A stretch of 20,000 bases of DNA from an uncultured virus (IMG/VR IMGVR_UViG_3300027741_000051) (IMGVR_UViG_3300027741_000051:54817-74816); one strand, 5' to 3'. Counted from the stretch's first letter, positions 3 to 17,097 are shown. Made by a program: numbers and translations. The notes: a model not told the origin generated them from the letters alone.

Positions 3-980
3 AATGGTGCTTTCGTACAAGCTAATGCGGCTTATGGTTCACAGAATGTAACTGGTACCTATGCTAACTCAGCTTATCTAGCAGCTAATGGTGCCAATGC
101 TAATTCTATAACAACTGGTATCTATGCTAATTCAGCTTATCTGGCGGCTAATAATGCAAACGCCAACGCAATAACATCTGGTGTTTATGCTAATGGTGCT
201 TTTGTACAGGCTAACGCAGTATACATATTTGCTAATTCGGTATTCAGCACACATAATACAAGTATTTCATCTGCATTCACTCAAGCGAATTCAGCTTATG
301 GTTCACAGAACACAACTGGTATTTACGCCAACTCTGCATTTGTAGCCGCCAATTCAGCTGGTGTATATGCTAACGGTGCTTTTGTACAAGCGAATGCTGC
401 ATATACATCACAAAATGTGACCGGTACATATGCCAACTCAGCATACTATACTGCAAACTCAGCACAGATATATGCTAACGGTGCTTTTGTACAAGCAAAT
501 GCGGCTTTCAATTCTCAAAATGTAAGCGCAACTTATGCCAACTCAGCATACTATACCGCAAACTCAGCGCAGATATATGCCAATGGTGCTTTCGTACAAG
601 CTAATGCATCATATAGTGGTCAAAATGTAACTGGTACATATGCCAACTCAGCATATTTGGCGGCCAATAATGCAAATGCTAATGCCATAACGTCTGGTTC
701 ATATGCTAACTCCGCATATGCACAAGCTAATGGTGCTTCAATATATGCCAATGGTTCTTTCGTACAAGCCAATGCGGCTTTTACTTCATCAAATGCAATC
801 AATTTAACCCAAAACACCAGCATTACAGCTGCATTCACTCAAGCGAATTCTGCATATGGTAGTCAAAATACAACTGGTACATATGCTAACTCCGCATATG
901 CACAGGCTAATAGTGCCAGCATATATGCTAACGGTGCTTTCACGCAAGCTAATGCAGCTTTCGCTGTGGCAAATACTGGT
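3..980 (+). repeat. Degenerate coding tandem repeat (ANxA[YF] units, about 7-aa period, with higher-order 35-aa and 60-aa duplications)
   Basis: 431-502 closely matches 536-607 (105-nt offset). The 25-mer CATATGCTAACTCCGCATATGCACA is exact at 700-724 and 880-904 (180-nt offset). Confidence 0.9.
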
Positions 981-1130
981 CCTGCTCCATTAATTCTTCT
1001 CAACAGTACATATATAACCAGTAATGCAACGATTGCAGCAAATACAAATGGACTTTCCGTTGGCCCATTAACCATAGCTAGTAGTTACTATGTTAATGTT
1101 GCGAGTGGACAACGATGGATAATTTTATAA
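3..1130 (+). CDS. Fibre-like structural protein, 5'-truncated by the window edge; Ala/Asn/Tyr repeat shaft plus C-terminal 'GPxT...SGQRW' domain
   Basis: The frame is open from nt 3 (AAT GGT GCT TTC GTA CAA = NGAFVQ...) into the listed 417..1130 ORF, so the GTG at 417 is internal. Repeated YANSAY/ANGAFVQANAA units; ends NGLSVGPLTIASSYYVNVASGQRWIIL-TAA. Confidence 0.8.
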   Translation, partial: NGAFVQANAAYGSQNVTGTYANSAYLAANGANANSITTGIYANSAYLAANNANANAITSGVYANGAFVQANAVYIFANSVFSTHNTSISSAFTQANSAYGSQNTTGIYANSAFVAANSAGVYANGAFVQANAAYTSQNVTGTYANSAYYTANSAQIYANGAFVQANAAFNSQNVSATYANSAYYTANSAQIYANGAFVQANASYSGQNVTGTYANSAYLAANNANANAITSGSYANSAYAQANGASIYANGSFVQANAAFTSSNAINLTQNTSITAAFTQANSAYGSQNTTGTYANSAYAQANSASIYANGAFTQANAAFAVANTGPAPLILLNSTYITSNATIAANTNGLSVGPLTIASSYYVNVASGQRWIIL

Positions 1131-1139
1131 AATAAAAAA

Positions 1140-2687
1140 ATGAGCACACTATCAACTGGAACTTTACTCACAACAGCATTTACAGTAAGGTCAGATTTAT
1201 CTGGCAATCTGCAAATACAAACTGGTACAAGTTCAGCTAATGCAGTTCTTATCGATTCTAATCAAAATGTAACATTTAATGGTTCAATTACATCAAACAC
1301 TATCACTTCGGCAGCAGCTACATCACTCACATTAAAAAGTGCAGGAACTACTGCGCTCACACTTAATTCAAGTCAAGCAATAGGTTTAGGTTCTACACCA
1401 TCTTTTGGAACAAACGGACAAGTTCTGACTTCAGCAGGATCGAGTGCATCACCTACTTGGACTACTCTGTCAACAACATCCATTTCTAACGGCACATCTA
1501 ACGTATCTGTGGCCTCGTCTGGTGGTCCAGTTACTATTGCTACTAATGGAAACACAGCGGTCACTATTGACACAAGCCAAAACGCCACGTTCGCGGGCAC
1601 AATTAAATCCACTGGTAAAGGCGTAGTGCAAAACTACGACTACCTAGTCCCGACTACGGGGTTCTCATATACTTTCAGCACCTACAACACGCTGATAATC
1701 AACCCGGCCGGTACATTGCTTACCGGAACCATTACAATGCCTGCTTCACCTAGTGATGGAATGGTGGTTAGCTTCAGTAGCACAAAAGAAATTACTACAC
1801 TTACACTTAATGCTAATACAGGACAGACGCTGAATAACACAATTCCTGGGTTAGTGCCGGGACAATCAATATCTTACATATATCGTTCTGCATCCACTTC
1901 ATGGTTTGTGTTCAGCACGGCTCTTACACCAACATTTCTCACCACATTAGCTAATTTAGGTTTTTACACAGTCAGTTATTTGGTAGTTGCTGGCGGTGGC
2001 GGTGGCAGCGGAGGTTCAGGTGGCGGAGGGGCTGGAGGCCTTTTAACTTCGTCTACCAGTGTTCTTACTGGAACCGCATACACAGTGACTGTTGGTGCAG
2101 GTGGATCCGCTCAACCAGCGGCAACCGGTGTTGGTGATACCGGCGGTAATTCAAGTATTGGTAGTCTTGTAACTGCTCTTGGTGGTGGTGGCGGTAGTTC
2201 CGGTACTGGCGTTTCTGGTGGTTCTGGTGGTGGCGGCCGCGGTGGTAATGGCGGCGGCTCTGGCACTACTGGGCAAGGAAATGCCGGTGGCGGTGGAGGT
2301 GGTGGCAATGCGTGTGGTGGCGGCGGAGGCGCTTCAGCGGCCGGAAATTCTGGTTCTGGTTCTTCTGGTGGAACGGGTGGTGCTGGAACAGCAAGTAGCA
2401 TATCCGGTTCCAGTGTTACTTACGCTGGCGGTGGTGGTGGTGCCGGCGCTGGTGGTAACGGCAGCGGCGGTGCAGGTGGCGGCGGCGCATATCCCAATGC
2501 CGCGACTGTAAATTCTGGTGGTGGTGGGGGCTGTACATGGAACGCCCCAAATACGGGCACTAATGGTGGTTCCGGCATCGTCATCATCAGTTACTCCGGT
2601 TCGCAAAAAGGCACAGGTGGTACAGTAACATCTTCTGGTGGAAACACTATACATACATTTACATCAAGCGGTACATACACAGCATAA
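1140..2687 (+). CDS. Tail fibre/adhesin-like protein with C-terminal Gly-rich domain
   Basis: 515 aa, Ser/Thr/Gly-rich. Fibre motifs GTNGQVLTSAG..PTW, AVTIDTSQNATFAG and TITMPASPSDG. Gly-rich domain from YLVVAGGGGG (about 1965) to GGSGIVIISY...HTFTSSGTYTA. Confidence 0.8.
   Translation: MSTLSTGTLLTTAFTVRSDLSGNLQIQTGTSSANAVLIDSNQNVTFNGSITSNTITSAAATSLTLKSAGTTALTLNSSQAIGLGSTPSFGTNGQVLTSAGSSASPTWTTLSTTSISNGTSNVSVASSGGPVTIATNGNTAVTIDTSQNATFAGTIKSTGKGVVQNYDYLVPTTGFSYTFSTYNTLIINPAGTLLTGTITMPASPSDGMVVSFSSTKEITTLTLNANTGQTLNNTIPGLVPGQSISYIYRSASTSWFVFSTALTPTFLTTLANLGFYTVSYLVVAGGGGGSGGSGGGGAGGLLTSSTSVLTGTAYTVTVGAGGSAQPAATGVGDTGGNSSIGSLVTALGGGGGSSGTGVSGGSGGGGRGGNGGGSGTTGQGNAGGGGGGGNACGGGGGASAAGNSGSGSSGGTGGAGTASSISGSSVTYAGGGGGAGAGGNGSGGAGGGGAYPNAATVNSGGGGGCTWNAPNTGTNGGSGIVIISYSGSQKGTGGTVTSSGGNTIHTFTSSGTYTA
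2562..2687 (+). repeat. Dispersed direct repeat, copy 1 (3' end of a Gly-rich gene); copy 2 at 6095..6220
   Basis: 106/126 nt identical by hand alignment. Includes the exact 29-mer GGTACAGTAACATCTTCTGGTGGAAACAC at 2619-2647 and 6152-6180. Confidence 0.9.
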
Positions 2688-2705
2688 AAAAGTTAAGGAG
2701 TTAAT

Positions 2706-3050
2706 ATGGCACATTTTGCAAAAGTATCAAACGGCGTAGTAGTTCAAGTCATTGTGGCTGAACCTGAGTTTTTTCAAACATTCGTAGACACAAGTCCTGG
2801 TGAATGGATCCAGACTAGTTATAATACCCGAGGCGGTGTTCACGCTAACGGCGGCACTCCATTGCGTAAAAATTACGCTGGTGTTGGTTTTACTTACGAT
2901 AGAACCCGTGACGCTTTTATTCCACCACAACCATTTCCATCTTGGACATTGAATGATGAAACTTGCCTGTGGGATGCACCAACACCAATGCCTACTGACG
3001 GCATATACGAATGGAATGAATCAACTACTTCTTGGGTTGTTCTGGAATAA
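2706..3050 (+). CDS. Small conserved phage protein (MAHFAK... family), probable fibre assembly/partner protein; paralog of 11206..11547
   Basis: AAGGAG RBS upstream. Motifs WIQTSYNT, PLRKNYAGVG.TYD..RDAFIPPQPFPSW.LN..TCLW.AP.P. Follows a Gly-rich fibre gene. The function is inferred from position. Confidence 0.75.
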   Translation: MAHFAKVSNGVVVQVIVAEPEFFQTFVDTSPGEWIQTSYNTRGGVHANGGTPLRKNYAGVGFTYDRTRDAFIPPQPFPSWTLNDETCLWDAPTPMPTDGIYEWNESTTSWVVLE

Positions 3051-3084
3051 ATGAAAACAACCATTCTAAATTGTGGAGTAAACT

Positions 3085-3699
3085 ATGCCATTATTTCTTA
3101 ACGGCACAGACAATAGCGCAACGACACCAGCAATACAAGGTGGTACTGCTGGCACAACTACGGGTGTTTACTATCCAAACACAAATCAATTAGCTATATC
3201 CACTAACGGCACACAAGCCTTTTTGATTGATGCAAACCAAAATGGCACTTTTACATCCACTGGAGCTCTTACATTAAGTAAAGGTACAACAGGACAACAA
3301 CCAGCAAGTCCAGCTACTGGTATGTTGCGTTACAATACAACGACAAGCCAATTTGAGGGATATGGTGGTGCATCTCCTGCATGGACTTCTGTTGGTGGTG
3401 CAACTCTAAGCAACGATACAACGACTGCTAGTTATGAGTATCCATTGTTTGCGGCATCAACAACTGGTTCTGCGACTACAGTTTATACCAGCAATACAAA
3501 TTTGTTATATAAACCATCTACCGGTGAATTACAAGCATCTGTAGTCACGGCAAATAATGGTTTATACCTAAATAGAGCAACGATAAGTTCAAGTTATACA
3601 ATTGCTGCAGGTTATAATGCTATGACAGTTGGTCCTGTGACTGTGGCGAATGGACAATCAGTTACAATTACCAGCGGCCAACGCTGGTTAATTTTTTAA
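3085..3699 (+). CDS. Short fibre/connector-like protein with C-terminal 'GPxT...SGQRW' domain
   Basis: GGAG RBS. Contains GTTGQQPASPATGMLRYNTTTSQFEGY and LLYKPSTGEL fibre motifs. The C-terminus NAMTVGPVTVANGQSVTITSGQRWLIF resembles the end of the first ORF. Confidence 0.75.
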   Translation: MPLFLNGTDNSATTPAIQGGTAGTTTGVYYPNTNQLAISTNGTQAFLIDANQNGTFTSTGALTLSKGTTGQQPASPATGMLRYNTTTSQFEGYGGASPAWTSVGGATLSNDTTTASYEYPLFAASTTGSATTVYTSNTNLLYKPSTGELQASVVTANNGLYLNRATISSSYTIAAGYNAMTVGPVTVANGQSVTITSGQRWLIF

Positions 3700-3708
3700 G
3701 GATAATAA

Positions 3709-4926
3709 ATGGCATCAAGTATTTCTGCAGGAACAACATCCAGTACCGGTTTGGTTGCTACTGCTGATACCACAGGTGCGTTGGTATTGCAGACCAACAA
3801 CGGCACGACTGCGCTCACACTGGATACTTCGCAAAATGCCACCTTTGCTGGCTACGCAAACCTGCCAAACACCTTTGGCTTCAAGAACCGCATCATCAAT
3901 GGTGCGATGGTGATTGACCAGCGTAATGCGGGGGCGGCAACGGCGAATACTATTAGTGGATACACGGTAGATAGATGGCAAGTTGTTCAATACCCGACAA
4001 CTGGTAAAGTTGTTGGGCAACAAAATGCTGGCTCGGTAACTCCTCCAGTTGGATTTAATAACTATTTTGGAATAACATCCCAATCGGCATTTTCAATAGT
4101 TGCTGGAAGCATTTACACATTTATTCAAGCAATTGAAGGGTTTAATTTTGCAGATATGGCTTGGGGTACTGCAAACGCACAGACAGTTACATTATCTTTT
4201 AGAGTTTATTCATCACTTACTGGAACTTTTGGTGGAAGTTTAGGAAATGGGTCAAGTTTTAATAGGTCATATCCTTTTACATACACCATCTCTTCAGCAA
4301 ATACATGGACAACAATCAGCATAACAATTGCTGGTGATACTACTGGAACTTGGGCGGGGGCAACTAATGGGGTTGGGGTTTATGTTAATTTTGGATTGGG
4401 TGTAGGCTCTACTTTTAGCGGAACGGCTGGAGCATGGGCGGCTGGTGATTATCGTTCTGCTACAGGCGCAACCAGCGTAGTCGGCACAAGCGGAGCCACG
4501 TTCTACATCACAGGCGTACAGCTAGAAAAAGGCAGCACAGCTACATCGTTTGATTACCGCCCGTATGGTACTGAGTTGGCTTTATGTCAGAGATATTGTC
4601 CTGCTTGGTCTGTTTCTGGTGCAAGTAGCAATTTCCCGTTTGCGGGACAATGTTATGCATCAACTGCGGCTATTTTTACAGCACCTTATCCTGTTCAGCC
4701 TAGAGTAGCGGCAACAGGAATAACGACTAGTGGAACTTTTGCTGTGATACCAGCTAATTATGGAACTTCTGCCGCAGGAACAGTAGCTATTTATGGAACT
4801 GGAACAAATTTGTCAACTTTTGCCTTAAATGTAACTGGTTCAAGTGGTCTTACTATTGGAAATGCAACTTCTTTACAAAGCAGTAGTGCGACTAGTTTAA
4901 TTATTGCGACAGGATGTGAATTATGA
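3709..4926 (+). CDS. Putative receptor-binding/fibre protein with carbohydrate-binding-like beta-sandwich
   Basis: AAGGA RBS. N-terminal ADTTGALVLQT module; FKNRIINGAMVIDQR...TVDRW and ITGVQLEKGSTATSFDYRPYGTELALCQRY motifs, which I recognise from aquatic phage fibre proteins. Confidence 0.75.
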   Translation: MASSISAGTTSSTGLVATADTTGALVLQTNNGTTALTLDTSQNATFAGYANLPNTFGFKNRIINGAMVIDQRNAGAATANTISGYTVDRWQVVQYPTTGKVVGQQNAGSVTPPVGFNNYFGITSQSAFSIVAGSIYTFIQAIEGFNFADMAWGTANAQTVTLSFRVYSSLTGTFGGSLGNGSSFNRSYPFTYTISSANTWTTISITIAGDTTGTWAGATNGVGVYVNFGLGVGSTFSGTAGAWAAGDYRSATGATSVVGTSGATFYITGVQLEKGSTATSFDYRPYGTELALCQRYCPAWSVSGASSNFPFAGQCYASTAAIFTAPYPVQPRVAATGITTSGTFAVIPANYGTSAAGTVAIYGTGTNLSTFALNVTGSSGLTIGNATSLQSSSATSLIIATGCEL

Positions 4927-5093
4927 CAACACCAATTTGGAAATTAGTTAAAGACCCAACGACTCAACAAGAAAATGTTGTGTGGCGTGAATGGTCTGAT
5001 GGCAAGCAGGAATCTTGTTTAGTTACTGCTGAAGCCTACCTAGAATGGCTTGCTGAAGGTAATACACCTGAACCAGCGGATACACCAGCATGA
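4923..5093 (+). CDS. Small 56-aa protein, probable fibre chaperone/partner (absent from the ORF track)
   Basis: ATG at 4923 and TGA at 5091-5093, each in an ATGA overlap with a neighbour. Translation: MTTPIWKLVKDPTTQQENVVWREWSDGKQESCLVTAEAYLEWLAEGNTPEPADTPA. I recognise YLEWLAEGNTPEPAD from small genes that follow phage fibre genes. Confidence 0.8.
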   Translation: MTTPIWKLVKDPTTQQENVVWREWSDGKQESCLVTAEAYLEWLAEGNTPEPADTPA

Positions 5094-6220
5094 CCACAAC
5101 AATCAACGCCAGCAATACAGGTACAGGTGGTTTAATACAGACCGCAGATGCCTCAGGAGTCCTTGCATTCCAAACGGCAGGAACAACTGCGGTCACCATA
5201 GATGCAAGCCGGAACACTACCTTTGCAGGCACAGCTACGGTAAATACTATTGGTTCAGCAGCAGCTACGGCACTAACAATAAAAAGCGCAGGAACGACTG
5301 CGGTCACCATCGACACGAGCCAGAACGTCACCTTGAATAGCACGGGTGCATTGACATTGCCCATCGGCACTACTGCACAGCAGCCCACAGCAGTGGCTGG
5401 CATGATTCGCTACAACTCCACAACGTCTTCATTTGAACTGTACAACGGCTCCTACTGGGGTTCAATTGTTACTACATACGCAGTTAGCTATTTAGTTGTG
5501 GCTGGCGGCGGGGGCGGTTATGGGCCAGCAGGTGGCGGAGCCGGGGCTGGTGGGTTGTTGTCGGGCAGTTCTTTGAGTCTTGCTTCGGGAACTGCATATG
5601 CCGTCACCATTGGCGCTGGTGGAACAGGAGATGGCACCTACACCGCAACAGCAGGCGGCAATTCAGTTCTTAGTTCTCTTACTGCAATTGGCGGAGGCAC
5701 TGGTAACGGAATTGCTGGCGGTTCTGGAAGCGGCGGTGGCCCCGCTACCAGTGGTTACGCTGGCACAGCAGGGCAAGGTAATGCAGGTGGAACTGCCAGT
5801 GGCGGAAACGGGTGCAGCGGCGGTGGTGGCGCTGGCGCAGTAGGCGGTTCTAGTACCTCTAATTCTGGTGCAGGCGGCGCTGGCCTTGCTTCTTCAATTT
5901 CAGGTACTTCCACATATTACGCTGGTGGTGGTGGAGGTGGTGGTATCAACGGGGGAACCAACGGAGCAGGCGGCGCTGGCGGTGGTGGAGCCGGGGCTGT
6001 TTACAACGGCGCAAATGGAGTTGCTGGCACTACAAATCTTGGCGGTGGCGGCGGCGGCGGTGGTAATGCCGGAAGTAATGGAAGAATTGGTGGCAATGGC
6101 GGCTCCGGTATCGTAATCATCAGTTACTCCGGTTCACAACGCGGTTCTGGCGGTACAGTAACATCTTCTGGTGGAAACACAATCCACACGTTCACCTCCA
6201 GCGGCACATACACAGCATAA
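5090..6220 (+). CDS. Fibre/adhesin-like protein with C-terminal Gly-rich domain
   Basis: 376 aa. N-terminal TADASGVLAFQT module, AVTIDxSxN repeats, GTTAQQP..AGMIRYNST...FE.Y, then YLVVAGGGGG...GGSGIVIISY...HTFTSSGTYTA. Confidence 0.8.
   Translation: MTTTINASNTGTGGLIQTADASGVLAFQTAGTTAVTIDASRNTTFAGTATVNTIGSAAATALTIKSAGTTAVTIDTSQNVTLNSTGALTLPIGTTAQQPTAVAGMIRYNSTTSSFELYNGSYWGSIVTTYAVSYLVVAGGGGGYGPAGGGAGAGGLLSGSSLSLASGTAYAVTIGAGGTGDGTYTATAGGNSVLSSLTAIGGGTGNGIAGGSGSGGGPATSGYAGTAGQGNAGGTASGGNGCSGGGGAGAVGGSSTSNSGAGGAGLASSISGTSTYYAGGGGGGGINGGTNGAGGAGGGGAGAVYNGANGVAGTTNLGGGGGGGGNAGSNGRIGGNGGSGIVIISYSGSQRGSGGTVTSSGGNTIHTFTSSGTYTA
6095..6220 (+). repeat. Dispersed direct repeat, copy 2 of 2562..2687
   Basis: Same alignment. 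Differences are mostly synonymous third positions; 39 of 41 residues are identical. Confidence 0.9.
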
Positions 6221-6228
6221 GGAAAAAA

Positions 6229-6651
6229 ATGTCTAGCATTATATCAGCAGATTCAGGATTAATAACAGGAGTACCAGGACTTAAAACAAGTGCCGATAGT
6301 ACCGGCTCTTTGCAATTTCAAACAGGTAATAATGTAACTGTAGTTACTTTGACTTCCAATGGAGGTATTGCATTTGGTACGAGTAATACTGCATATGGTA
6401 CTTCAGGACAAGTACTAATCAGTGGAGGAGATTCACCTCCAGCATGGACTACTTTTTCTCCATTACCTTCGCAAACAGGTTATGCGAATAATTTCTTAAA
6501 AACAAATGGAACTACTGCTAGCTGGAGCACATTACCTACTACTTTATACGTCCTAAATAGAGCAGGTTCCTCAATTAGTATACCTGTTGGTAACGGTTTA
6601 TTGCCAATTTTGAATCGCTCAGGTTCTACAATTAACGTGCCAGTAAGTTAA
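6229..6651 (+). CDS. Short fibre/connector-like protein
   Basis: AAGGA RBS. N-terminal SADSTGSLQFQT module; GTSGQVLISGG..PAW and LPSQTG....FLKTNGT..SW fibre motifs; C-terminal duplicated LNRxGSxIxxPV. Confidence 0.7.
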   Translation: MSSIISADSGLITGVPGLKTSADSTGSLQFQTGNNVTVVTLTSNGGIAFGTSNTAYGTSGQVLISGGDSPPAWTTFSPLPSQTGYANNFLKTNGTTASWSTLPTTLYVLNRAGSSISIPVGNGLLPILNRSGSTINVPVS

Positions 6652-6659
6652 GGAAAAAT

Positions 6660-7154
6660 ATGACAACTAGATACACATTGGTTCTTAACGGAACATCAAT
6701 ACAAGAACAACAAAATACTGACACCATTATTTTTACTGGTTCGTCAAGTCTGCCTTCTATTAAAACGTCAAGCATTGCTGAAGTTGATACGATTGCTGCG
6801 ACTGCTGCTACAGGTACAGTTAACTATGATTTGGCTACTCAATCTGTAATGTATTATAGCACTAACGCATCCGGAAACTGGACACTTAATTTTCGAGCTT
6901 CAAGTGGTAACAGTTTGGACTCTATGCTTGCAACTGGTGAAGTTGCTTCTGCTACTTTTCTAGTTACTCAAGGTTCTACAGCATATTATAATAGTGCCGT
7001 GACAATTGACGGTAATTCAGTAACACCTAAATGGCAAGGCGGTTCTGCGCCAACAAGTGGTAATGCAAGTTCTATTGACTGTTATACATATGTTATTCAG
7101 AAAACTGGAAGTGCAACTTTTGTTGTGTTGGCTTCGTTGACAAAATTTGCATAA
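6660..7154 (+). CDS. Fibre-tip-like protein
   Basis: AAGGA RBS. C-terminal VTPKWQGGSAPTSGNASSIDCYTY...KTGSATF.VLAS.TKFA motif, which I recognise from phage fibre C-termini. Confidence 0.7.
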   Translation: MTTRYTLVLNGTSIQEQQNTDTIIFTGSSSLPSIKTSSIAEVDTIAATAATGTVNYDLATQSVMYYSTNASGNWTLNFRASSGNSLDSMLATGEVASATFLVTQGSTAYYNSAVTIDGNSVTPKWQGGSAPTSGNASSIDCYTYVIQKTGSATFVVLASLTKFA

Positions 7155-7164
7155 AGGATAATTG

Positions 7165-10100
7165 ATGCCACGTTTATCGAAAATTGGAGCGGCCGCACTT
7201 GCTGCCTTTGGGTGGACTGGACTGCAATCGGTTACCGTCAGTTATCTTGTAGTTGCTGGCGGGGGCGCGGGTGGTGGAGGCGTTGCTTCTCACGGCGGTA
7301 GCGGAGGGGGCGCGGGCGGTTATCGGACGGGAACAGCATCATTAAACCCATCACTGTCTTACACAGTCACAGTTGGCGCTGGAGGTGCTGGTGCAAATAG
7401 TACTGGTGCATCTGGTAGTGATTCCACATTTAACGCAACCACTTCGGCAGGAGGTGGGGGAGGAGTTACCGCTAGTAACGTAGGCGTTGCTGGTGGTTCT
7501 GGTAGTGGTGGTGGCCCTGATGGAACACCAGCCGCTGGCGGCGCTGGAAACACACCATCTACATCCCCAGTGCAAGGTTACGCTGGTGGACAAGGTATTA
7601 CGGACAATGCTTCTTACAGTGCAACTGGTGGTGGCGGCGGTTCTTCGGCGGTCGGTGCTGCCGGTGTAAATGGGCAATCTGGTGCTGGTGGCGTAGGTAC
7701 TGCAAATAGCATCTCAGGCACATCTACCTACTATGCTGGTGGCGGTGGAGGCGGTGCTACAACTCAATCAACTCGAGGCACAGGTGGTAATGGCGGTGGT
7801 GGCAATGGTGCATCCTCTGGTGCTGGTAGCTCCGGTACAGCAAACCTTGGTGGTGGTGGCGGTGGAGCATCAGTTAGTGGTACAACGGGCGGCAACGGAG
7901 GCTCCGGTGTCGTAATCATCTCCTACGTTGGCGCACAGCAATTCGGTGGCGGAGTTGTCACAACTGATGGCACAAACACAATTCACATATTTAACACATC
8001 AGGAACTCTGTTGCCTTTGTCTTCACTGACAGCACAATATCTTGTTGTTGGTGGTGGTGGCGGAGGCGCTTCAGGCGGCGGTGGTGCTGGAGGTTTTCGC
8101 ACTGGTACTGGGGTCACGATTGATACCAACTCTAATTATGTAATCACCGTTGGCAGTGGAGGAAGTGGAGGAGTTGGTGGCAGCGGAACACCGGCATCAA
8201 CTAATGGCGCTAATTCAGTTTTTTTAAATATTACTTCAGCTGGTGGCGGCAACGGCGCACGAATTGGAAATAGTGGAGAACTGTCCGGCGGATCTGGTGG
8301 ATCTGGTGGCGGCGGTGGCGGATTTTCAAATTCTATAACAAATGGAGGATCAGGAAATACTCCAAGTACCAGCCCAAGTCAAGGTAATAATGGCGGCAGC
8401 AATGGAACTCAACTATCTTCTCCTTATCCCGCTGGTGGTGGCGGTGGCGCTAGTGCAGTTGGAGGAAATGGTTCTGGTGGTTCAATTTCAGGTAATGGCG
8501 GTGCAGGCACGGCAAGCAGTATTAGTGGTTCAAGCGTTACCTATGCTGGCGGTGGCGGCGGCGGTAGTTATGGTAGTGGCACTGCGGGCACCGGCGGCGC
8601 CGGCGGTGGAGGCGCAGGAAGTGGCACAACAACCGGCACCAGTGGAACAGCCGGTACTGGCGGCGGCGGCGGTGGTTCTTATGTTTCAGGCACCGGCGGT
8701 AACGGCGGCTCTGGCGTAGTCATCATTTCTTACGCCGGCTCTACCCAGCAGATGGCTGGTGGCACAGTGACCATCTCTGGCGGCAATGTCATCCACACAT
8801 TTACCTCCAGCGGATACCTAACGCCCATCAAGTACGCAAGCCGTTCACTGCGGTTCCGTAGCACCAACAATTCTTATTTGAACCGAACTCCCGCTAAAGC
8901 ATCCAACCAAAAAACATGGACATGGAGCGGTTGGGTTAAGCGCGGAAATCTTGCTACAGGCGCGGCGCAATTTCTTTTTACAGCGCATAGCGGTTCTCCT
9001 TGGGGTGGTATTATTTTAGATTCAACAAATGCTATTCAAGTATCATTTAGCGCTGGAGTTTCCGGTGGAACTTACACTACTGCGCTTTATCGTGACCCAT
9101 CTGCTTGGTATCACATAGTAGTTGCGGTTGACACCACGCAAGCAACAGCATCAAATCGTATTTTGATTTATGTTAATGGAGTTGTAGTTACTTCATTTTC
9201 TGCCACCAACTACCCATCACAAAATTTTGATACGCAATTCAACAGCGCAATTGCCCATTACTTAGGATGTTCATCGTCCAGCACTGAAAATTTTGATGGC
9301 TATCTTGCTGAGGTCAACTTCATTGACGGCGCAGCCCTGACACCATCCAGTTTTGGCACGTTCAACAGCTACGGCGTATGGCAACCCATCACCTACGGCG
9401 GCTCGTATGGCACGAACGGGTTCTATCTGACCTTCGGCAACAACACATCGACCACCACGCTGGGCTACGACACCAGCCCGCAGGGCAACAACTGGACGAC
9501 GAACAACATCAGCGTGACTACTGGCACAACCTACGACTCCATGACGGATGTGCCAACGCTGACAAGCGCGACAGTGGCGAATTACGCTACTTGGAATCCA
9601 TTGAGAAAAGATAATATTTCAACAATATATTTAACCAATGGGAATTTAACAGCGCAAGGGCCAAATTACCCAAGCGGTGCGTTTATGTCCACAATTGCTT
9701 CACAAGGTTCAGGACTTTGGTATGCAGAATTAACGCTTTCAAACACAACATACCCTACTGTTGCTGTTGCAGATATTACTGTTGCCAATATTTCTCCAAG
9801 CGGTTCGATGAACGTCAGCGGGGTAATTGCATGGGACAACAGTAGCTACTTTATAAATGGCTCCACTTCTTCATCGGCCGCTACGTTTGCGTCTGGTGAT
9901 GTGCTTGGTATTGCTTTTGACGGGGCAACTCGCAAGGTATGGTTTGCCAAAAATAACACTTGGATTTCAAGCGGAAACCCAGCGGCTGGCACAAACCAAA
10001 TCGGCATAGTCGCAGGAACAGGCCCGCTTGCATTTGCTTGTAGGCCAGAAAATTCTGTAGCGATTTCCGCCAACTTCGGTCAACAAGGCTTCACCTACAC

Positions 10101-11196
10101 CCCACCAAGCGGCTTTGTTGCGCTGAACACTTACAACCTGTCCACGCCTACGATACCAAATGGCGCAACGCAAATGGCGGCTACGACCTACACGGGCAAT
10201 GGTTCTACTCAGAGCATTGTCAACACGGTCAATGGCACAGTATTTCAGCCTGATTGGGTTTGGATTAAGAAGCGAAGTGCGGCGGCTAGCTCTGGTTTAT
10301 TTGATGTTCTTAGAGGCGCTGGAGTCGTATTAACTAGCAATATCACTGACGCTGAAAGAAATAACGGAACTGGTTCTGGTGGTGACCTGATTGCCTTTAA
10401 CTCAAACGGGTTTAATTTAGGCAACAATACAACTGGCAGCGCAACAGACAGTAACTTGTCTGGTTCAACCTACATTGGCTGGCAATGGAAAGCCAACGGC
10501 GCAGGCGTATCCAACACCAGCGGCTCTATCACCAGCACGGTGAGCGCAAATCCTACGGCTGGGTTCAGCGTGGTTACCTATACGGGTACAAATACCGCTG
10601 CCACTGTTGGTCACGGGTTGGGTGTAACGCCAAGCATGATTATTGTGAAGCAGCGCAATTCTGGGTCTGAAAATTGGCTTACCTATCACAGTTCATTAAC
10701 TAACCCAACGACAAGTTATTTGTATTTGAATAGCACCGCTGCGCAAGCAACAACAGCAAGCTACTGGAATGGTGGCCCGACCTCATCTGTATTTGGTATT
10801 GGCGCTTTTTCTGGTATCAACGCAAGTGCTGGAACCTATGTTGCCTACGTTTTTTCCGCAATAGCAGGGTACAGCGCATTTGGTAGCTACACGGGCAACG
10901 GCTCAAGTGATGGGCCGTTTGTGTACACGGGATTCCGTCCACGGTTTGTATTAGTTAAACATACCAATGACATTGATAGTTGGTTTGTTTGGGATTCCTC
11001 ACGAATTTCATACAACGCCGCAAATTTAACATTAAAGCCAAATTCTTCTGACGCAGAAGAAAGTGCGTATTCAATTGACACACTGTCCAACGGATTCAAA
11101 ATAAGAACATCTGATGTACGGCAAAATACAAGCGGCGGAACTTACATCTACGCCTGCTTTGCCGAAAACCCATTCAAGTATGCTAACGCTCGTTAA
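7165..11196 (+). CDS. Large multidomain adhesin: two Gly-rich domains + LamG/ConA-like + SPRY-like + C-terminal domain of unknown function
   Basis: ATG 7165 is preferred over TTG 7162 because AAGGA at 7154-7158 gives 6-nt spacing. Gly-rich about 7231-8010 and 8026-8820. LamG-like (TWTWSGWVKRG, RDPSAWYHIVVAVDT, FDGYLAEVNFIDG) about 8840-9500. SPRY-like (GLWYAE, GDVLGIAFD, NFGQ..F.YTPPSGF) about 9580-10140. C-terminal PDWVWIK/GFSVVTYTG/GFRPRFVLVK domain. Confidence 0.85.
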   Translation: MPRLSKIGAAALAAFGWTGLQSVTVSYLVVAGGGAGGGGVASHGGSGGGAGGYRTGTASLNPSLSYTVTVGAGGAGANSTGASGSDSTFNATTSAGGGGGVTASNVGVAGGSGSGGGPDGTPAAGGAGNTPSTSPVQGYAGGQGITDNASYSATGGGGGSSAVGAAGVNGQSGAGGVGTANSISGTSTYYAGGGGGGATTQSTRGTGGNGGGGNGASSGAGSSGTANLGGGGGGASVSGTTGGNGGSGVVIISYVGAQQFGGGVVTTDGTNTIHIFNTSGTLLPLSSLTAQYLVVGGGGGGASGGGGAGGFRTGTGVTIDTNSNYVITVGSGGSGGVGGSGTPASTNGANSVFLNITSAGGGNGARIGNSGELSGGSGGSGGGGGGFSNSITNGGSGNTPSTSPSQGNNGGSNGTQLSSPYPAGGGGGASAVGGNGSGGSISGNGGAGTASSISGSSVTYAGGGGGGSYGSGTAGTGGAGGGGAGSGTTTGTSGTAGTGGGGGGSYVSGTGGNGGSGVVIISYAGSTQQMAGGTVTISGGNVIHTFTSSGYLTPIKYASRSLRFRSTNNSYLNRTPAKASNQKTWTWSGWVKRGNLATGAAQFLFTAHSGSPWGGIILDSTNAIQVSFSAGVSGGTYTTALYRDPSAWYHIVVAVDTTQATASNRILIYVNGVVVTSFSATNYPSQNFDTQFNSAIAHYLGCSSSSTENFDGYLAEVNFIDGAALTPSSFGTFNSYGVWQPITYGGSYGTNGFYLTFGNNTSTTTLGYDTSPQGNNWTTNNISVTTGTTYDSMTDVPTLTSATVANYATWNPLRKDNISTIYLTNGNLTAQGPNYPSGAFMSTIASQGSGLWYAELTLSNTTYPTVAVADITVANISPSGSMNVSGVIAWDNSSYFINGSTSSSAATFASGDVLGIAFDGATRKVWFAKNNTWISSGNPAAGTNQIGIVAGTGPLAFACRPENSVAISANFGQQGFTYTPPSGFVALNTYNLSTPTIPNGATQMAATTYTGNGSTQSIVNTVNGTVFQPDWVWIKKRSAAASSGLFDVLRGAGVVLTSNITDAERNNGTGSGGDLIAFNSNGFNLGNNTTGSATDSNLSGSTYIGWQWKANGAGVSNTSGSITSTVSANPTAGFSVVTYTGTNTAATVGHGLGVTPSMIIVKQRNSGSENWLTYHSSLTNPTTSYLYLNSTAAQATTASYWNGGPTSSVFGIGAFSGINASAGTYVAYVFSAIAGYSAFGSYTGNGSSDGPFVYTGFRPRFVLVKHTNDIDSWFVWDSSRISYNAANLTLKPNSSDAEESAYSIDTLSNGFKIRTSDVRQNTSGGTYIYACFAENPFKYANAR

Positions 11197-11205
11197 GGAG
11201 AACAC

Positions 11206-11547
11206 ATGAGCCATTTTGCAAAAGTAGAGAACGGAATAGTAACACAGGTACTTGTTGCAGAGCAAGATTTTATTAATACAGGTGCAATGGGTCACGGATG
11301 GATTCAAACAAGTTACAATACACATGGTGGTGTTCATAATGAAGGTGGTACACCATTGCGTAAGAATTATGCTGGTGTCGGTTATACATATGATAACGAC
11401 CGTGACGCTTTCATACCACCACAACCATTTCCATCTTGGATATTGAACGAAGATACTTGTTTATGGCAAGCACCAGTTCCAAGAAATAATGATGATAAGA
11501 TGTATTCTTGGGACGAATCAACCACTTCTTGGGTGTCTCTAAGTTAA
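11206..11547 (+). CDS. Small conserved phage protein (MSHFAK... family); paralog of 2706..3050
   Basis: AAGGAG RBS. Aligns nearly end-to-end with 2706..3050. The 25-mer CCACCACAACCATTTCCATCTTGGA is exact at 2922-2946 and 11416-11440. Confidence 0.75.
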   Translation: MSHFAKVENGIVTQVLVAEQDFINTGAMGHGWIQTSYNTHGGVHNEGGTPLRKNYAGVGYTYDNDRDAFIPPQPFPSWILNEDTCLWQAPVPRNNDDKMYSWDESTTSWVSLS

Positions 11548-11597: not shown

Positions 11598-12371
11598 ATG
11601 CCAACAATTAATAATAGACAAGAATTTATAGATTACTGCCTTCGTAGATTAGGTGCGCCTGTTATTGATATTAACATGGATCAAGACCAAATTGAAGATA
11701 GAGTAGATGATGCAATTCAATATTGGCAAGATTATCATTTTGATGGCACACAAAAATTCTATTGGATTCATTCAGTAACACAACAAGATATTAATAATAG
11801 ATACTTGAGTGCATCTGGTGTTTTGGACGAAAGCAATAATGCAATACAAATTGTTGGTATCTCTCGTATATTTCCAGTTAATGATTCTCAGGCTAATGTT
11901 AATATGTTTGACCTAAGATACCAACTCCGCTTGAATGAACTATATGACTTTACCTCAGCATCCTATGTCAATTATGTTCTGACTCAACAACATCTTCGTT
12001 CATTGGAAATAATGTTTACAGGAGAAGTTCCTATTCGTTGGAATAGAGTAACACAAAGACTGTATATCGATTGGGCTTGGGGTGACCAAGAAGCTCCTGT
12101 AGGAACAATAGTTGTTGCCGAAGCTTATGGTGGTATTAATCCAACTTCATATCCAAATATTTGGCAAGACCGATTTCTAAAACTTTATGCTACTGCTTTA
12201 ATTAAGAAAAATTGGGGTGAGAACATGAAGAAATTTGGAGGTATTCAATTACCCGGCGGAATAACATTGAATGGCAAAGAAGTATTTGATGAAGCTATTG
12301 AAGAAATATCACAACTCCATCAAGAAATGGAAACAAATTACGGTGGCCCACTAGAATTCATGATGAACTAA
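11598..12371 (+). CDS. gp13: Neck protein, T4 gp13-like
   Basis: YCLRRLGAPVIDIN...DQIEDRVDDAIQY..DYHFDG and YATALIKKNWGENMKKFGGIQLPGGITLNG motifs; first gene of the 13-14-15-16-17-18 block. Confidence 0.95.
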   Translation: MPTINNRQEFIDYCLRRLGAPVIDINMDQDQIEDRVDDAIQYWQDYHFDGTQKFYWIHSVTQQDINNRYLSASGVLDESNNAIQIVGISRIFPVNDSQANVNMFDLRYQLRLNELYDFTSASYVNYVLTQQHLRSLEIMFTGEVPIRWNRVTQRLYIDWAWGDQEAPVGTIVVAEAYGGINPTSYPNIWQDRFLKLYATALIKKNWGENMKKFGGIQLPGGITLNGKEVFDEAIEEISQLHQEMETNYGGPLEFMMN

Positions 12372-12372
12372 A

Positions 12373-13257
12373 ATGGCAACATCACCATATTTCAATAATT
12401 ACAAAGCCAAATACAGCGAACAAAGGCTCGTTGATGATTTGATGGCTGAATCAATTAAGATTCAGGGCTTTGATGCGTACTATATTCCTAATGATAATTC
12501 TATAGCAAGAGATTTATTATACGGTGAAGATCCTGTAAAGAAATTCAACACAGCATTTCCTGTTGAGATGTATTTGTCTAGTGTTATGGGAACAGAAGGA
12601 CAAAAAGATTTCTTTTCCAAATTTGGTTTAGAAATACGCAATCAAGTCCATGTACTAGTTTCACGCAAGGCTTTCTATCAAAGAACACCTCAAACAACTT
12701 ATTTAAGACCAATTGAAGGTGACTTAGTTTACGTTCCATTTTTGAACGGTGGTGGTGAATTGTATGAGATTAAATATGTTGACCAAAACAAAGATGGATT
12801 TACATTGGGAAGAAGAAATCCATACTACTACGAATTGGAAATGGAAAAATTCAAGTATTCACAAGAAATTATTTCTACTGGTATGGCAGATATAGATGTT
12901 GCTTCTTCAGATTCTGCATATACACTACATTTAAATGTTGGTGCTGGTACAGGTTCTTATACACTCAAAGAATTGGTATATCAATCACCTGATAATACAT
13001 ATGCAAATGCAACAACAATTGCTACTGTACAAACTTGGATTCCAACAACTAATACACTTTCTGTTATATACATTGCAGGTGAATTTGTCGATGGTGTAAC
13101 TATTATTGGCCAATCAAGTAATGCCAGATTCACATTATCTTCATATGATCCTTTAGATAATCCAGGACATCTTGAACCATATTCAAACAGTCTATTGCAA
13201 TCAGAAGGTAACACTTATATAAACACGACAGAAACTAATCCAATTGGTGGTTTATAA
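12373..13257 (+). CDS. gp14: Neck/head-completion protein, T4 gp14-like
   Basis: EQRLVDDLMAESIKIQG.D.YY.P, LYGED...KF, FFSKFGLEIR, RP.EGDLVY.P and F.YS.E motifs; synteny. Confidence 0.95.
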   Translation: MATSPYFNNYKAKYSEQRLVDDLMAESIKIQGFDAYYIPNDNSIARDLLYGEDPVKKFNTAFPVEMYLSSVMGTEGQKDFFSKFGLEIRNQVHVLVSRKAFYQRTPQTTYLRPIEGDLVYVPFLNGGGELYEIKYVDQNKDGFTLGRRNPYYYELEMEKFKYSQEIISTGMADIDVASSDSAYTLHLNVGAGTGSYTLKELVYQSPDNTYANATTIATVQTWIPTTNTLSVIYIAGEFVDGVTIIGQSSNARFTLSSYDPLDNPGHLEPYSNSLLQSEGNTYINTTETNPIGGL

Positions 13258-14333
13258 TGGCAAATGTTTACTACAATAGGATGATAAGAAAGATAACTGT
13301 TGCTTTTGGTGATTTGTTTAAGAACATCACAATGGTTCGTTACAATGCAGATGATTCGGAACAAGAAAGATTCATTGTTCCTATTGAATATGCAACCAAA
13401 GAATTATATGTAATGCGTATACAAGGTGACCCAAACCTTGACAAGAAAGTTATGATGACTTTGCCTAGAATGTCATATGAGATGAATGGCCTATCTTATG
13501 ATTCGACCAGAAAACAGATGACAAACATAAAACAATTCAATCAAAGTGGTGCCGTAACTTCTTCTCAATATGTTCCTGTTCCATATAACTTTGATTTCTC
13601 TTTGTATCTGTATGTAAGAAACATTGAAGACGGAAATCAAATTATCGAACATATTTTACCATTTTTTGCACCAGATTATACGATTAAGGTCAACATGATT
13701 CCTGAAATGGGAATCGTTAAAGAAGTTCCTGTTATTTTAAAAGATACAAAATATGAAGTAACATATGAAGGTGATTATAGTTCAGATACAAGGTCTGTAA
13801 TTTGGACATTAAATTTCACTGTCAAAGGTTTTATATTTGGTGCAACATCTACCGCTGGTGTAATTAAAACATCCATTACTAATATATACAATACAATATC
13901 CGACAGAGATACTGTGATATTTTCGCTTACTCCTCTTGGAACAGGTGATTATCAGATTGGTGAATTGGTATATCAGGGAGCTTCTCCTGCTTATGCGACA
14001 GCAAGTGCAAGGATTGTCAATTGGGACTATTTAAATTTAAAATTAACAGTAAGTAATTTAGATGGTAATTTTATATCAGGTCAAAAACTAATTGGTTCCA
14101 TAACAGATGCAACATGGACTTTTGATTCTTATAATATCGTAACTGAAAAATATACAAATATTGTTATCACACCCGCATATGGTCCATCTCAAGATGATTT
14201 AGCGGCAGATACAGGTTCAGAAGATATTATGACCGAAACCGGAACAGAAGATTTACTAACGGTAACAAGTGATAATGGACCAATTGATCCTTTCACATAC
14301 AATACTGTTATCACCGAATATCCAAATACTTAA
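13257..14333 (+). CDS. gp15: Tail sheath stabiliser/tail terminator, T4 gp15-like, with C-terminal extension
   Basis: IRKITVAFGDLF..I, VPIEYA.KE, TLPRMSYE, PVPYNFDFSL, DGNQIIEHILPFF.P and IWTLNFTVKG motifs; TAATG overlap with gp14. Confidence 0.95.
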   Translation: MANVYYNRMIRKITVAFGDLFKNITMVRYNADDSEQERFIVPIEYATKELYVMRIQGDPNLDKKVMMTLPRMSYEMNGLSYDSTRKQMTNIKQFNQSGAVTSSQYVPVPYNFDFSLYLYVRNIEDGNQIIEHILPFFAPDYTIKVNMIPEMGIVKEVPVILKDTKYEVTYEGDYSSDTRSVIWTLNFTVKGFIFGATSTAGVIKTSITNIYNTISDRDTVIFSLTPLGTGDYQIGELVYQGASPAYATASARIVNWDYLNLKLTVSNLDGNFISGQKLIGSITDATWTFDSYNIVTEKYTNIVITPAYGPSQDDLAADTGSEDIMTETGTEDLLTVTSDNGPIDPFTYNTVITEYPNT

Positions 14334-14348
14334 TTCAAGGATTTAAAA

Positions 14349-15353
14349 ATGGCAAAAACATTACAATTTAGAAGATATACAACAGCAAATCTTTCAAGTA
14401 TAACTGGAGCAAATGGTGAATTAATTATAGATACAACATTAAATGCAATTACAGTACACACTGGTAGTCAACCTGGTGGTTTTTATACTGCAAATGCTAT
14501 AACATTACAGGCAGCATTCAATCAGGCTAATGCAGCATATGCACAGGCAAACACAGATTTAACCTATCTTGCTTCTAATGTTGCAATAATTTTAGGTATA
14601 GATGTTACTCAAAATAACACAGGCAATTTAGCTTTTGCTCAAGCCAATGCGGCTTATAGTTCTCAAAACGTAACTGGTAGCTATGCCAACTCAGCATATA
14701 CAGCAGCTAATGGTGCCAACGCAAATGCAATTTCATCCGGTGTTTATGCTAATTCTGCTTTTTCTTCTGCAAACGGAATTAATTTAACACAAAACACCAA
14801 CATTACGGCTGCGTTCACTCAGGCAAACTCATCATATGGTTCACAGAATACTACAGGCACATACGCCAATTCGGCATATACAGCAGCCAATGGTGCCAAT
14901 GCCAACGCAATAACCTCTGGTACATATGCTAATGCCGCGTTTTTAACAGCCAATACACCAAGCAATGTGGCAAATTCTGCAGCACTCTATGCTAATGCGG
15001 CTTTCACGGCAGCCAATACCGCAGCAAATACAATACCACAAAATCTACAAACAACAAATTATGTTTTACAAGTATCTGATGCAGGTAAACATATTTACTA
15101 CACTCAAGCATCCAATACAACATTGTATATTCCCAATTCGGGACAAGCATCATTTCAAAATGGTGCAGCCGTATTAATTGTATCACAAACAACATCAGCT
15201 GCAAATGTAACAATAACACCAAATACTGGCGTGTCATTGTATCTTGCAGGTAATACAACAAGTGCTTCACGAAATGTTACTACATATGGTATGGCAACAT
15301 TAATGAGGGTTGCTGCAAATACATGGTTTATTAATGGTACGGGAGTAGTATAA
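14349..15353 (+). CDS. Accessory fibre: Mtd-N-like N-terminus, Ala/Asn repeat shaft, C-terminal knob
   Basis: The N-terminus LQFRR.T......TGA.GELIIDT.....VH.G..PGG resembles the N-terminal domain of Bordetella phage major tropism determinant-type fibres. Same ANSAY repeats as the first ORF. C-terminal NYVLQVSDAGK...ATLMRVAANTWFING. Confidence 0.75.
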   Translation: MAKTLQFRRYTTANLSSITGANGELIIDTTLNAITVHTGSQPGGFYTANAITLQAAFNQANAAYAQANTDLTYLASNVAIILGIDVTQNNTGNLAFAQANAAYSSQNVTGSYANSAYTAANGANANAISSGVYANSAFSSANGINLTQNTNITAAFTQANSSYGSQNTTGTYANSAYTAANGANANAITSGTYANAAFLTANTPSNVANSAALYANAAFTAANTAANTIPQNLQTTNYVLQVSDAGKHIYYTQASNTTLYIPNSGQASFQNGAAVLIVSQTTSAANVTITPNTGVSLYLAGNTTSASRNVTTYGMATLMRVAANTWFINGTGVV

Positions 15354-16680: not shown

Positions 16681-17097
16681 ATGAATACATTTGAAAAAAA
16701 CATGGAAGAAATATTTGATATTGCTCCAAAACCAGAAACACCAGTTGTTGTGAAACCAGAAACACCTGTTTCGCAATTAGATTCAAATTTAGAAGAAGAT
16801 TTGAACGATGCCTATGAGCAGACTAAGACCAATCTTCAAGACTTGATTGACCAAGGCAAAGATGCAATGGAAGAAATATTGATGATTGCAAAAGCAGGTC
16901 AACATCCAAGAGCATTTGAAGTGTACGGAACACTACTTAAAAATGTAGTAGATGCAAACAAAGAACTACTTGCAGTACAGAAGCAGATGCGTGAAATGAA
17001 TAAACAAAATCAACCATCAGGTGCAACACATATAGATAAAGCCATATTTGTTGGTTCAACTTCTGAACTTAATAAATTAATTAAGGGCAAAGAATGA
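16681..17097 (+). CDS. gp16: Terminase small subunit, T4 gp16-like
   Basis: D..DAYE..K.NL..LI..G..A, HPRAFEVYG.LLK and IFVGSTSEL.K motifs; directly upstream of the large terminase. Confidence 0.93.
   Translation: MNTFEKNMEEIFDIAPKPETPVVVKPETPVSQLDSNLEEDLNDAYEQTKTNLQDLIDQGKDAMEEILMIAKAGQHPRAFEVYGTLLKNVVDANKELLAVQKQMREMNKQNQPSGATHIDKAIFVGSTSELNKLIKGKE

Follow-up and report, generated by a model that had tools for sequence, protein, structure and literature searches.

Paired C-terminal tail and N-terminal head modules suggest a conserved docking joint between carrier and tip proteins in the receptor-binding gene cluster of a T4-like aquatic phage

The stretch of DNA analyzed here consists of the last 20 kb of a 74.8-kb viral contig from IMG/VR (IMGVR_UViG_3300027741_000051, positions 54817–74816; estimated completeness 44%), and this whole stretch of 20,000 nucleotides (nt) is referred to below as the window. 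Positions 3–11547, counted from its first letter, hold a block of genes, all on the strand shown, that sits between baseplate and neck genes, the place where T4-like phages keep their fibre genes. The block is best explained as a receptor-binding (tail-fibre) gene cluster organized around a conserved inter-protein joint, in which a C-terminal domain of one protein (the ‘tail’ of a ‘carrier’) is followed, in the next gene, by an N-terminal module (the ‘head’ of a ‘tip protein’, with a variable ‘payload’ behind it). The original prediction, made from the sequence alone, described the two elements as a socket and a plug recurring across 11 adjacent genes. Every motif it quoted is present where it was placed, and the claim of 11 genes shrinks to two tails and five heads.

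The first open reading frame (ORF), 3–1130, encodes the C-terminal 375 amino acids (aa) of a 747-aa fibre protein that starts upstream of the window, is built of YANxAF/AQANxAY repeats and matches phrog_13173 (tail fiber, E = 3e-5). It had been taken for a long shaft ending in a socket; the tail is indeed there, although the ORF itself is only the part of the protein left after the cut by the window. Its tail domain lies at 984–1127 and ends with ...VGPLTIASSYYVNVASGQRWIIL (closing letters SGQRWIIL), and that of the 204-aa protein at 3085–3699 lies at 3547–3696 and ends with ...VGPVTVANGQSVTITSGQRWLIF (SGQRWLIF). BLASTP comparison of the C-terminal ~160 aa of the two proteins yields E = 2e-11 with 41% identity across the last 61 aa (from 945 to 1127 in the fibre gene), so the common end motif is real, and the pairwise comparison demonstrates sharing of these ~61 aa only, the tail domain comprising ~50–60 aa. 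The tail consensus, ...N.xTxxxSYTIxxGxNAxSxGPxTxxxGxxVTxxSGxRWxxx, describes a beta-rich segment of ~50 aa that runs directly into the stop codon. Profiles of the tail and head scanned over the whole contig recover exactly two tails and four A-type heads; given that these profiles included the window's own sequences, the scan is informative only as to the absence of further matches.

The heads occupy the first 15–45 residues of the downstream protein and fall into three related types, A (MASxISAGT..TADTxGxLxLQT..TAxTxDxxQN), B (MASIVVNGDTSGAVTLSAPAVAG..) and C (MxxVLDGTxGIT.P). In the window, a diverged A-type head (1140–1316) opens the 515-aa tip protein at 1140–2687, which continues with shaft repeats and a Gly_rich_2 domain; an A1 head (3709–3885) opens the 405-aa tip protein at 3709–4926 (phrog_4492, tail fiber), which has a ‘NRIINGAMVIDQRN...CEL’ payload; an A2 head (5090–5263) opens the 376-aa tip protein at 5090–6220, in which a beta-prism (~5306–5467) and a predicted TNF-like plus glycine-rich tip (~5474–6145) follow; and an A3-type head (6229–6402) opens the 140-aa protein at 6229–6651, with only a short C-terminal part behind it. 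The N-termini of 3709 and 5090 are homologous (E = 2e-13, 51% over 57 aa), as are those of 1140 and 6229 (E = 6e-4), and ORFs 1140 and 3709 start exactly 9 nt after the tail ORFs, all in agreement with what had been noticed in the sequence. The second half of head A is similar to the unit that is repeated in the trimeric fibres of Bdellovibrio (8ond, E 0.018), and it recurs internally in 1140 and 5090. The 204-aa protein is double-ended, with a C-type head (~3085–3243; E = 5e-10 against the head of a tail-following gene in locus L034), a beta-prism (3217–3399), a conserved middle and the tail; as judged from its modules, it fits a connector that would plug into one joint and offer another. Among the adaptors with sockets that had been proposed, this one stands as far as its architecture goes, whereas 6229 and 6660 fall away, the whole-contig profile search having found no tail domain at the C-terminus of either.

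The tail is widespread, and it is terminal. A profile of the last 50 aa matches the representatives of 8,680 clusters (50% identity) at E ≤ 1e-3 (4,227 at E ≤ 1e-10), and the 204-aa protein has 1,998 relatives at E ≤ 0.001 among proteins of similar length, in which a conserved C-terminal ~155 aa stand behind many different N-termini. Of the best 150 profile matches, 149 extend to the last residue of the protein or to the one before it, and the tail is terminal in 119 of the 120 longer relatives (358–1338 aa). The exception among the 150, P0133 (329 aa), contains five tandem internal tail units of ~45 aa, each ending with ...GSxWSxD, and in P0121 (207 aa) the tail is duplicated, with an extra internal copy; the tail thus appears to be an autonomous fold unit and not only a terminal peptide. 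Polypeptides in which a tail is fused to a following head were not found among the 120 longer relatives or the best 150 matches. The mean pairwise identity is 0.31 for the anchor, 0.72 for the middle and 0.64 for the tail of the carriers, and 0.25 for the payload, and such conservation of the distal end argues for a protein–protein interface rather than a receptor tip.

Neither the tail nor the heads have a Pfam-A match at E ≤ 0.01 (mere noise at E ≤ 10) or an NCBIfam match; phmmer detects none among the Protein Data Bank (PDB) sequences, where the carrier profile gives only 7rfv (E 0.05, in the prism part). A newer Pfam model, PF26696 (‘PTL_trimer’), is tagged by the source database on a few relatives (among them P0390, P0391, P0280 and P0360); the segment of the carrier module that it may cover is the beta-prism. 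A literature search found no paper on PF26696 or ‘PTL_trimer’, and none whose listing describes the tail or head motifs. The neighbours in the structure atlas and BFVD are ‘uncharacterized’ phage proteins, save for a homologue from P-TIM68 labelled as a virion structural protein.

The pairing of tail and head recurs far beyond the window. Among 80 related viral loci that were fetched with the carrier alignment (two of these are the window's own phage), the tail is at the very C-terminus in 78, and in 70 of these, 250 nt or more of sequence follow. A head opens the first downstream ORF in 65 of these 70 loci (34 with B, 25 with A and 6 with C); of the five misses, two are due to endonuclease-like ORFs that intervene, one to a frameshift in a B-head gene and two to miscalled starts with C-like heads inside. 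The intergenic gap measures 7–15 nt in 60 of the 70 loci and exactly 9 nt in 38, the usual junction being a TAA directly followed by GGA; the second window junction (3697–3711, TAAGGATAATAAATG) has this overlap of TAA-GGA with a Shine–Dalgarno sequence. For comparison, head-like N-termini are found in 5 of the 484 upstream genes of the same loci. A second scan, seeded with the C-terminus of the 747-aa fibre, mostly retrieved ANxAY repeats and contributed one new independent tail-bearing relative (L093), the rest serving as a control set: a head follows none of the 37 tail-less repeat-fibre genes and all three of the tail-bearing ones, two of which are the window's own. The nominal Fisher p values for adjacency against the two controls are 3e-72 and 3e-24, which are not true probabilities because the loci are related. 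The same junction is present in cultured phages, namely, the OM43 podoviruses MEP402 (gp60 then gp59) and MEP301 (gp22 then gp21) and the myoviruses P-TIM68 of Prochlorococcus and S-B64 and S-T4 of Synechococcus; in Nostoc phage Nsp-JY18, the tail is present only in a degenerate form, and the genes that follow are different ones. The adjacency on which the original prediction depended is decisively borne out in these other genomes. The available text of the OM43-phage paper mentions tail fibres only in general terms (PMC9004378).

Some junctions are interrupted. Extra ORFs lie at or near the tail–head junction in three loci (L014:6459-7190, L025:2679-3209 and L060:4767-5258), and in MEP301, gp20 (L089:4697-5278), annotated as ‘putative endonuclease’, is flanked by gp21, with an A head, on one side and gp19, with a B head, on the other, and gp20 and gp19 are alike in beginning with the identical residues MASIKLQGD. 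These insertions look like homing endonucleases that target the conserved joint region. At L022:5507-5833 and downstream, a B-head gene is broken after ~30 residues and resumes in another frame, a sequencing error or a genuine frameshift in this metagenomic contig.

The subtypes of tail and head are matched to each other. Tails with SGSRW precede B heads in 28 of 32 loci, those with SGQRW precede A heads in 14 of 16, and those with SGSVW or TGSVW precede C heads in 3 of 3. Across 60 junctions, pairwise identities computed for the carrier's final 40 aa correlate with those computed for the 40 aa that open the next protein (r = 0.64; 0.62 when only the 57 unique junctions are used, 0.52 among class A junctions and 0.47 among those of class B), and this co-variation is tighter than that between parts of the same protein: r is 0.35 for the carrier middle against its own tail, 0.18 for the head against its own payload and 0.22 for the anchor against the tail. 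Among the flanks, the anchors form 12 clusters and the payloads 30; both main pairings occur in four of the anchor clusters, and the NRIINGAMVIDQRN... payload cluster to which ORF 3709 belongs stands behind SGQRW tails with A heads (6 cases), SGSRW tails with B heads (12) and SGSRW tails with A heads (2). With the pairings spread across anchor clusters and one payload behind three junction types, the joint moves as a unit and both of its flanks are reshuffled. The interchangeable payloads anticipated for the head-bearing proteins are indeed observed, in these 30 clusters and in the glycine-rich payload that also occurs behind other anchors.

An AlphaFold monomer model of the 160-aa carrier module (pLDDT 76, pTM 0.41) consists of three beta sub-domains. 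The first, the beta-prism, resembles the anchor domain, residues 22–78, of the CBA120 tailspike TSP4 (Z 5.0, root-mean-square deviation (rmsd) 2.2 Å over 56 aa; profile E 0.05), and the last 50 aa, the most confident part of the model, have only weak beta-helix-like matches (Z 2.1–3.5). Fold searches with this monomer model returned no row for XD2/XD3 or gp10, and a T4-gp10-like branching domain, which had been considered for the carrier, was not found, the likeness to CBA120 being confined to the TSP4 anchor domain. Some carriers are only 109–147 aa long and are too small to be anything but adaptors.

The Gly_rich_2 family (PF21722, cut-off 24.3 bits) is matched by ORF 1140 (56 bits), ORF 5090 (54 bits) and, in two stretches, ORF 7162 (127 bits), in agreement with the glycine-rich payloads initially described for 1140 and 5090; the carbohydrate-binding-like payload attributed to 3709 comes down to a weak match to 7d29 (E = 0.07), and the connector end attributed to 6229 found no support. 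In the model of ORF 5090, residues 129–352 superimpose on cyanophage Pam3 gp24 (7ypx_A) with Z 12.9 and rmsd 2.4 Å over 154 aa at 30% identity, and this part also resembles the Bxb1 tail tip (Z 13.3) and ALK/LTK (Z about 5). As modelled, ORF 5090 carries a receptor-binding tip that combines TNF-like and glycine-rich parts in the manner of Pam3 gp24, and the Pam3 paper assigns receptor recognition to this fold (PMC9608196). The N-terminal 128 aa of the 5090 model, in which no helix of at least 4 residues is seen, consist of head A, a low-confidence stretch and the beta-prism. The glycine-rich payload family also occurs behind T7-fibre-like and other anchors, which makes head A positionally equivalent to known attachment domains.

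Every type of payload is accompanied by its own small downstream ORF: one of ~55 aa, ‘...DYQAYLKWLAEGNTPEPADE’, after payloads ending with ‘...EL’, one of ~86–100 aa, ‘...EYPPxxDYLDG..KYPKG’, after ‘...LMEIAA’ payloads, and one of ~85 aa, ‘MSLTKTTTVDQITVTENG...’, after other payloads. The 56-aa ORF at 4923–5093, which ends with ...YLEWLAEGNTPEPAD, has relatives that follow ‘...EL’-ending payloads 17 times in the related loci. The 114-aa protein at 2706–3050 and its 113-aa paralogue at 11206–11547, both phrog_7759, each follow a large Gly_rich_2-containing protein, the second of which ends in DUF7483, and a phrog_7759 relative follows a glycine-rich protein in L027. The small downstream ORFs are probably payload-specific assembly chaperones, with 4923–5093 as a candidate for its payload, and the 2706–3050 protein is a candidate cognate assembly factor.

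Taken together, the homology of the modules, their adjacency and terminal position, the subtype co-variation, the shuffled flanks and the receptor-tip nature of one payload make it more probable than not that the modules form a conserved joint by which tip proteins dock on carriers, which would allow tip exchange. Direct contact between tail and head is likely on balance; we infer the contact itself together with its stoichiometry and geometry. The carriers would be the 747-aa repeat fibre and the 204-aa connector and, in relatives, small adaptors with varied virion anchors, to which the downstream tip gene would be translationally coupled (stop-TAA/GGA, about 9 nt). The head would dock on the carrier trimer at its tail domain, with beta-strands probably continuing end-on from one to the other, payload-plus-chaperone cassettes would be exchanged behind the constant joint, and the same joint could be mounted on podovirus or myovirus anchors. 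The carrier may be multivalent, given that heads outnumber tails; instead, a single site may be contested by the tips, or other docking places may serve some of the heads.

Several observations weigh against a docking joint between tail and head. The two modules are contiguous on the DNA (~250 bp), so that linkage by itself would tend to keep them together in inheritance; the Mantel and Fisher figures take no account of the common ancestry of loci that are related; the 80 loci are those most similar to the query and not a random sample of the family; and the head classes were assigned by author-made regular expressions and naive ORF calls. The first window junction (1128–1142, TAAAATAAAAAAATG) has no recognizable ribosome-binding site, and P0133 shows that the tail domain can exist away from the C-terminus. 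Heads outnumber tails, as the two tails and five heads of the window illustrate, with the heads at 5090 and 6229 lacking a preceding tail; at least two head genes accompany the tail gene in 39 of 78 loci, the second nearly always with a conserved A2 head, whatever the type of the first. Because this A2 head is usually not adjacent to a tail, a simple 1:1 coaxial joint cannot explain all the heads.

These surplus heads are accounted for if the ~160-aa carrier module is a branched multivalent adaptor that holds two or three different tips in a tree-like adhesin, as in CBA120 and G7C, with a subtype-specific site on the tail for an A1, B or C head and a constant site on the conserved middle for A2. 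Such branching would fit the 39 loci with additional head genes, the middle as the most conserved segment of the carrier module (0.72), the single 147-aa carrier of MEP402 next to three head-bearing proteins, and the presence of both a head and a tail in the 204-aa protein of the window. It is nevertheless considered rather unlikely: the T4-gp10-like XD2/XD3 domain is missing from the fold matches and the TSP4 similarity involves the anchor domain; gp60 of MEP402 lacks the middle part and still has three head proteins beside it; and the gene counts would be the same if tips took turns at one site or if some heads were attached elsewhere. The heads without an upstream tail (5090 and 6229) could also mean that tail and head do not touch at all, the tail being a C-terminal folding or trimerization cap and the heads generic anchors on another baseplate or nozzle component, with adjacency and co-variation arising from operon order and tight linkage. 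The occurrence of the glycine-rich payload behind several other N-terminal anchors that dock directly to virion tails, e.g. T7-fibre-like ones, and the likeness of the second half of head A to an ordinary trimeric fibre repeat that also lies inside 1140 and 5090 speak in the same direction. This lack of contact is improbable when set against the absence of heads behind all 37 tail-less fibre genes of the same kind, the subtype pairing that holds across 12 anchor and 30 payload clusters, the carriers of 109–147 aa that leave room only for an adaptor, and the exact C-terminal position of the tail in 149 of the best 150 relatives. Resemblance by chance or low complexity among fibre sequences rich in Ser, Thr, Gly and Ala, with no specific module behind it, could draw on this biased composition and on the common fibre repeat in head A, and was rejected as next to impossible: the composition-adjusted pairwise E-values are 2e-11 and 2e-13, the profile matches 4,227 clusters at E ≤ 1e-10 with a fixed terminal position, and the contig scan returned its two tails and four A heads with no spurious matches.

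The docking principle itself is already known (gp37/gp38, the anchor, branching domain and docking peptide of branched systems, and the serial joints of T4), and by the tests run, the modules described here lie outside those families. What sets them apart is that the docking candidate is the C-terminal tail of a payload-less carrier and that the same joint occurs in podoviruses and myoviruses. The gene order in the window, a 747-aa fibre, 9 nt, a 515-aa glycine-rich protein and a 114-aa ORF, matches that of T-even (T2/S16-type) gp37/gp38, with the glycine-rich tip gene directly downstream of the fibre gene. The T-even gp38 is thought to dock by its N-terminus on the C-terminal end of the fibre protein gp37, and small cognate factors are encoded nearby. 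Scans of Pfam, PHROGs and NCBIfam gave no match to the gp37/gp38 sequence families, S16 gp38 is not among the 19 chains aligned in the fold search with ORF 5090, and, unlike the gp37/gp38 pair, the joint described here is also found in podoviruses and on adaptors of 109–200 aa. A gp38-type fold comprises an attachment domain, a beta-helix and a polyglycine sandwich. The S16 gp38 has been described with a short alpha-helical attachment domain (PMC9608196), whereas the heads are beta-rich or unmodelled.

The serial joints of the T4 long tail fibre, gp34-gp35-gp36-gp37, in which the products of consecutive genes are joined end to end, are another comparison for a T4-like phage with gp13/14/15, terminase and sheath homologues, but the joint modules here are shared with podoviruses, and no homology to the gp34-37 families is reported by Pfam, PHROGs or NCBIfam. 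In the Klebsiella phages KP32, K11 and KP34, in CBA120 (TSP2/TSP4) and in G7C (gp66/gp63.1), an anchored primary protein recruits a second receptor-binding protein (RBP) through a short conserved N-terminal peptide, and the payloads are swappable; the docking pair has been validated experimentally for KP32, K11 and KP34 (PMC13352976) and, by structural and biophysical work, for TSP4-N of CBA120 (PMC8825819). The head on the downstream gene in 65 of 70 loci is comparable with the docking peptide of such secondary RBPs as an architectural analogy, not as homology to the Klebsiella-phage peptide. In the known branching systems, a T4-gp10-like beta-jellyroll (XD2/XD3) lies in the N-terminal part of an RBP with its own enzymatic payload, whereas here the candidate docking domain is a C-terminal tail of ~50 aa on a carrier without a payload of its own. 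In CBA120 TSP4, XD1 starts at residue 80 and the gp10-like XD2/XD3 bind the partner spikes (PMC8825819); the comparison with G7C and CBA120 made originally accordingly survives as an analogy, the observed TSP4 similarity being to the anchor domain and not to the gp10-like branching domains. Pam3 offers a likeness at the distal end, in the TNF-like plus glycine-rich fold predicted for 5090 and in the small candidate chaperone ORFs after the payloads, the Pam3 fibre gp24 being accompanied by the chaperone gp25 (PMC9608196). It differs at the proximal end, where Pam3 gp24 docks to the baseplate by an N-terminal alpha-helical bundle and ORF 5090 has head A and a beta-prism instead. The chain-like fibres of phage A1002, described as dimers on a rope protein (PMC13730344), were set aside as a different architecture.

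The block holds two further proteins. The 164-aa protein at 6660–7154 (phrog_5906) has no head or tail by profile. The 1344-aa protein at 7162–11196, with two Gly_rich_2 domains and a C-terminal DUF7483, likewise shows neither by profile, and as only ~25 residues (7162–7245) precede its first glycine-rich domain, it has no recognizable attachment module; as called, it begins at a TTG, the preceding ORF being in a different frame. The guanine-plus-cytosine (GC) content rises to 0.53–0.56 at 2001–3000, 5001–6000 and 7001–9000, against ~0.35 in the backbone; the rise coincides with Gly_rich_2 coding (GGN codons), produces long spurious ORFs in other frames and is by itself no evidence of foreign origin.

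The gene complement is that of a T4-like myovirus: homologues of gp13, gp14 and gp15 lie at 11598–14333, the small and large terminase subunits at 16681–18773 and the tail sheath from 18846, and genes of baseplate size precede the window. Compared with its cyanomyovirus counterparts, the large terminase shows an identity of only ~55%, and no DNA nearly identical to this phage was found in records of cultured phages. Between gp15 and the small terminase subunit, a 334-aa protein (14349–15353) combines an Mtd_N domain with ANxAY repeats like those of the long fibre, without a tail domain, and is followed by a 437-aa Laminin_G_3 protein (15353–16666); homologues ending with ...ANTWFINGTGV (L117 and L124) precede the same neighbour as in the window. 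These two proteins could be collar or whisker fibres.

A much wider generalization, tentative and on present grounds rather doubtful, is that of a universal ‘socket’ of aquatic phages, spanning myoviruses and podoviruses of cyanobacteria and OM43-type hosts. It would include a pairing code (SGQRW with A1, SGSRW with B, SGSVW with C), a constant A2 site, two or three tips per adaptor trimer, and tip-plus-chaperone cassettes that recombination at the joint would carry from one virion type to another, unrelated one.

Receptor-binding proteins determine which hosts environmental phages can infect, and almost all of them are annotated as ‘hypothetical’. The docking joint, if true, would provide a sequence rule for spotting carriers and tips in thousands of aquatic phage genomes, the tail being borne by the 8,680 clusters noted above. 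The matching of subtypes amounts to a prediction of specificity that lends itself to bench tests, and the cultured phage–host pairs (OM43 MEP301 and MEP402; cyanophages P-TIM68, S-B64 and S-T4) make the hypothesis directly testable. The joint would also explain why recombination breakpoints fall inside genes and not between them, and would show how the same tips serve podoviruses as well as myoviruses.

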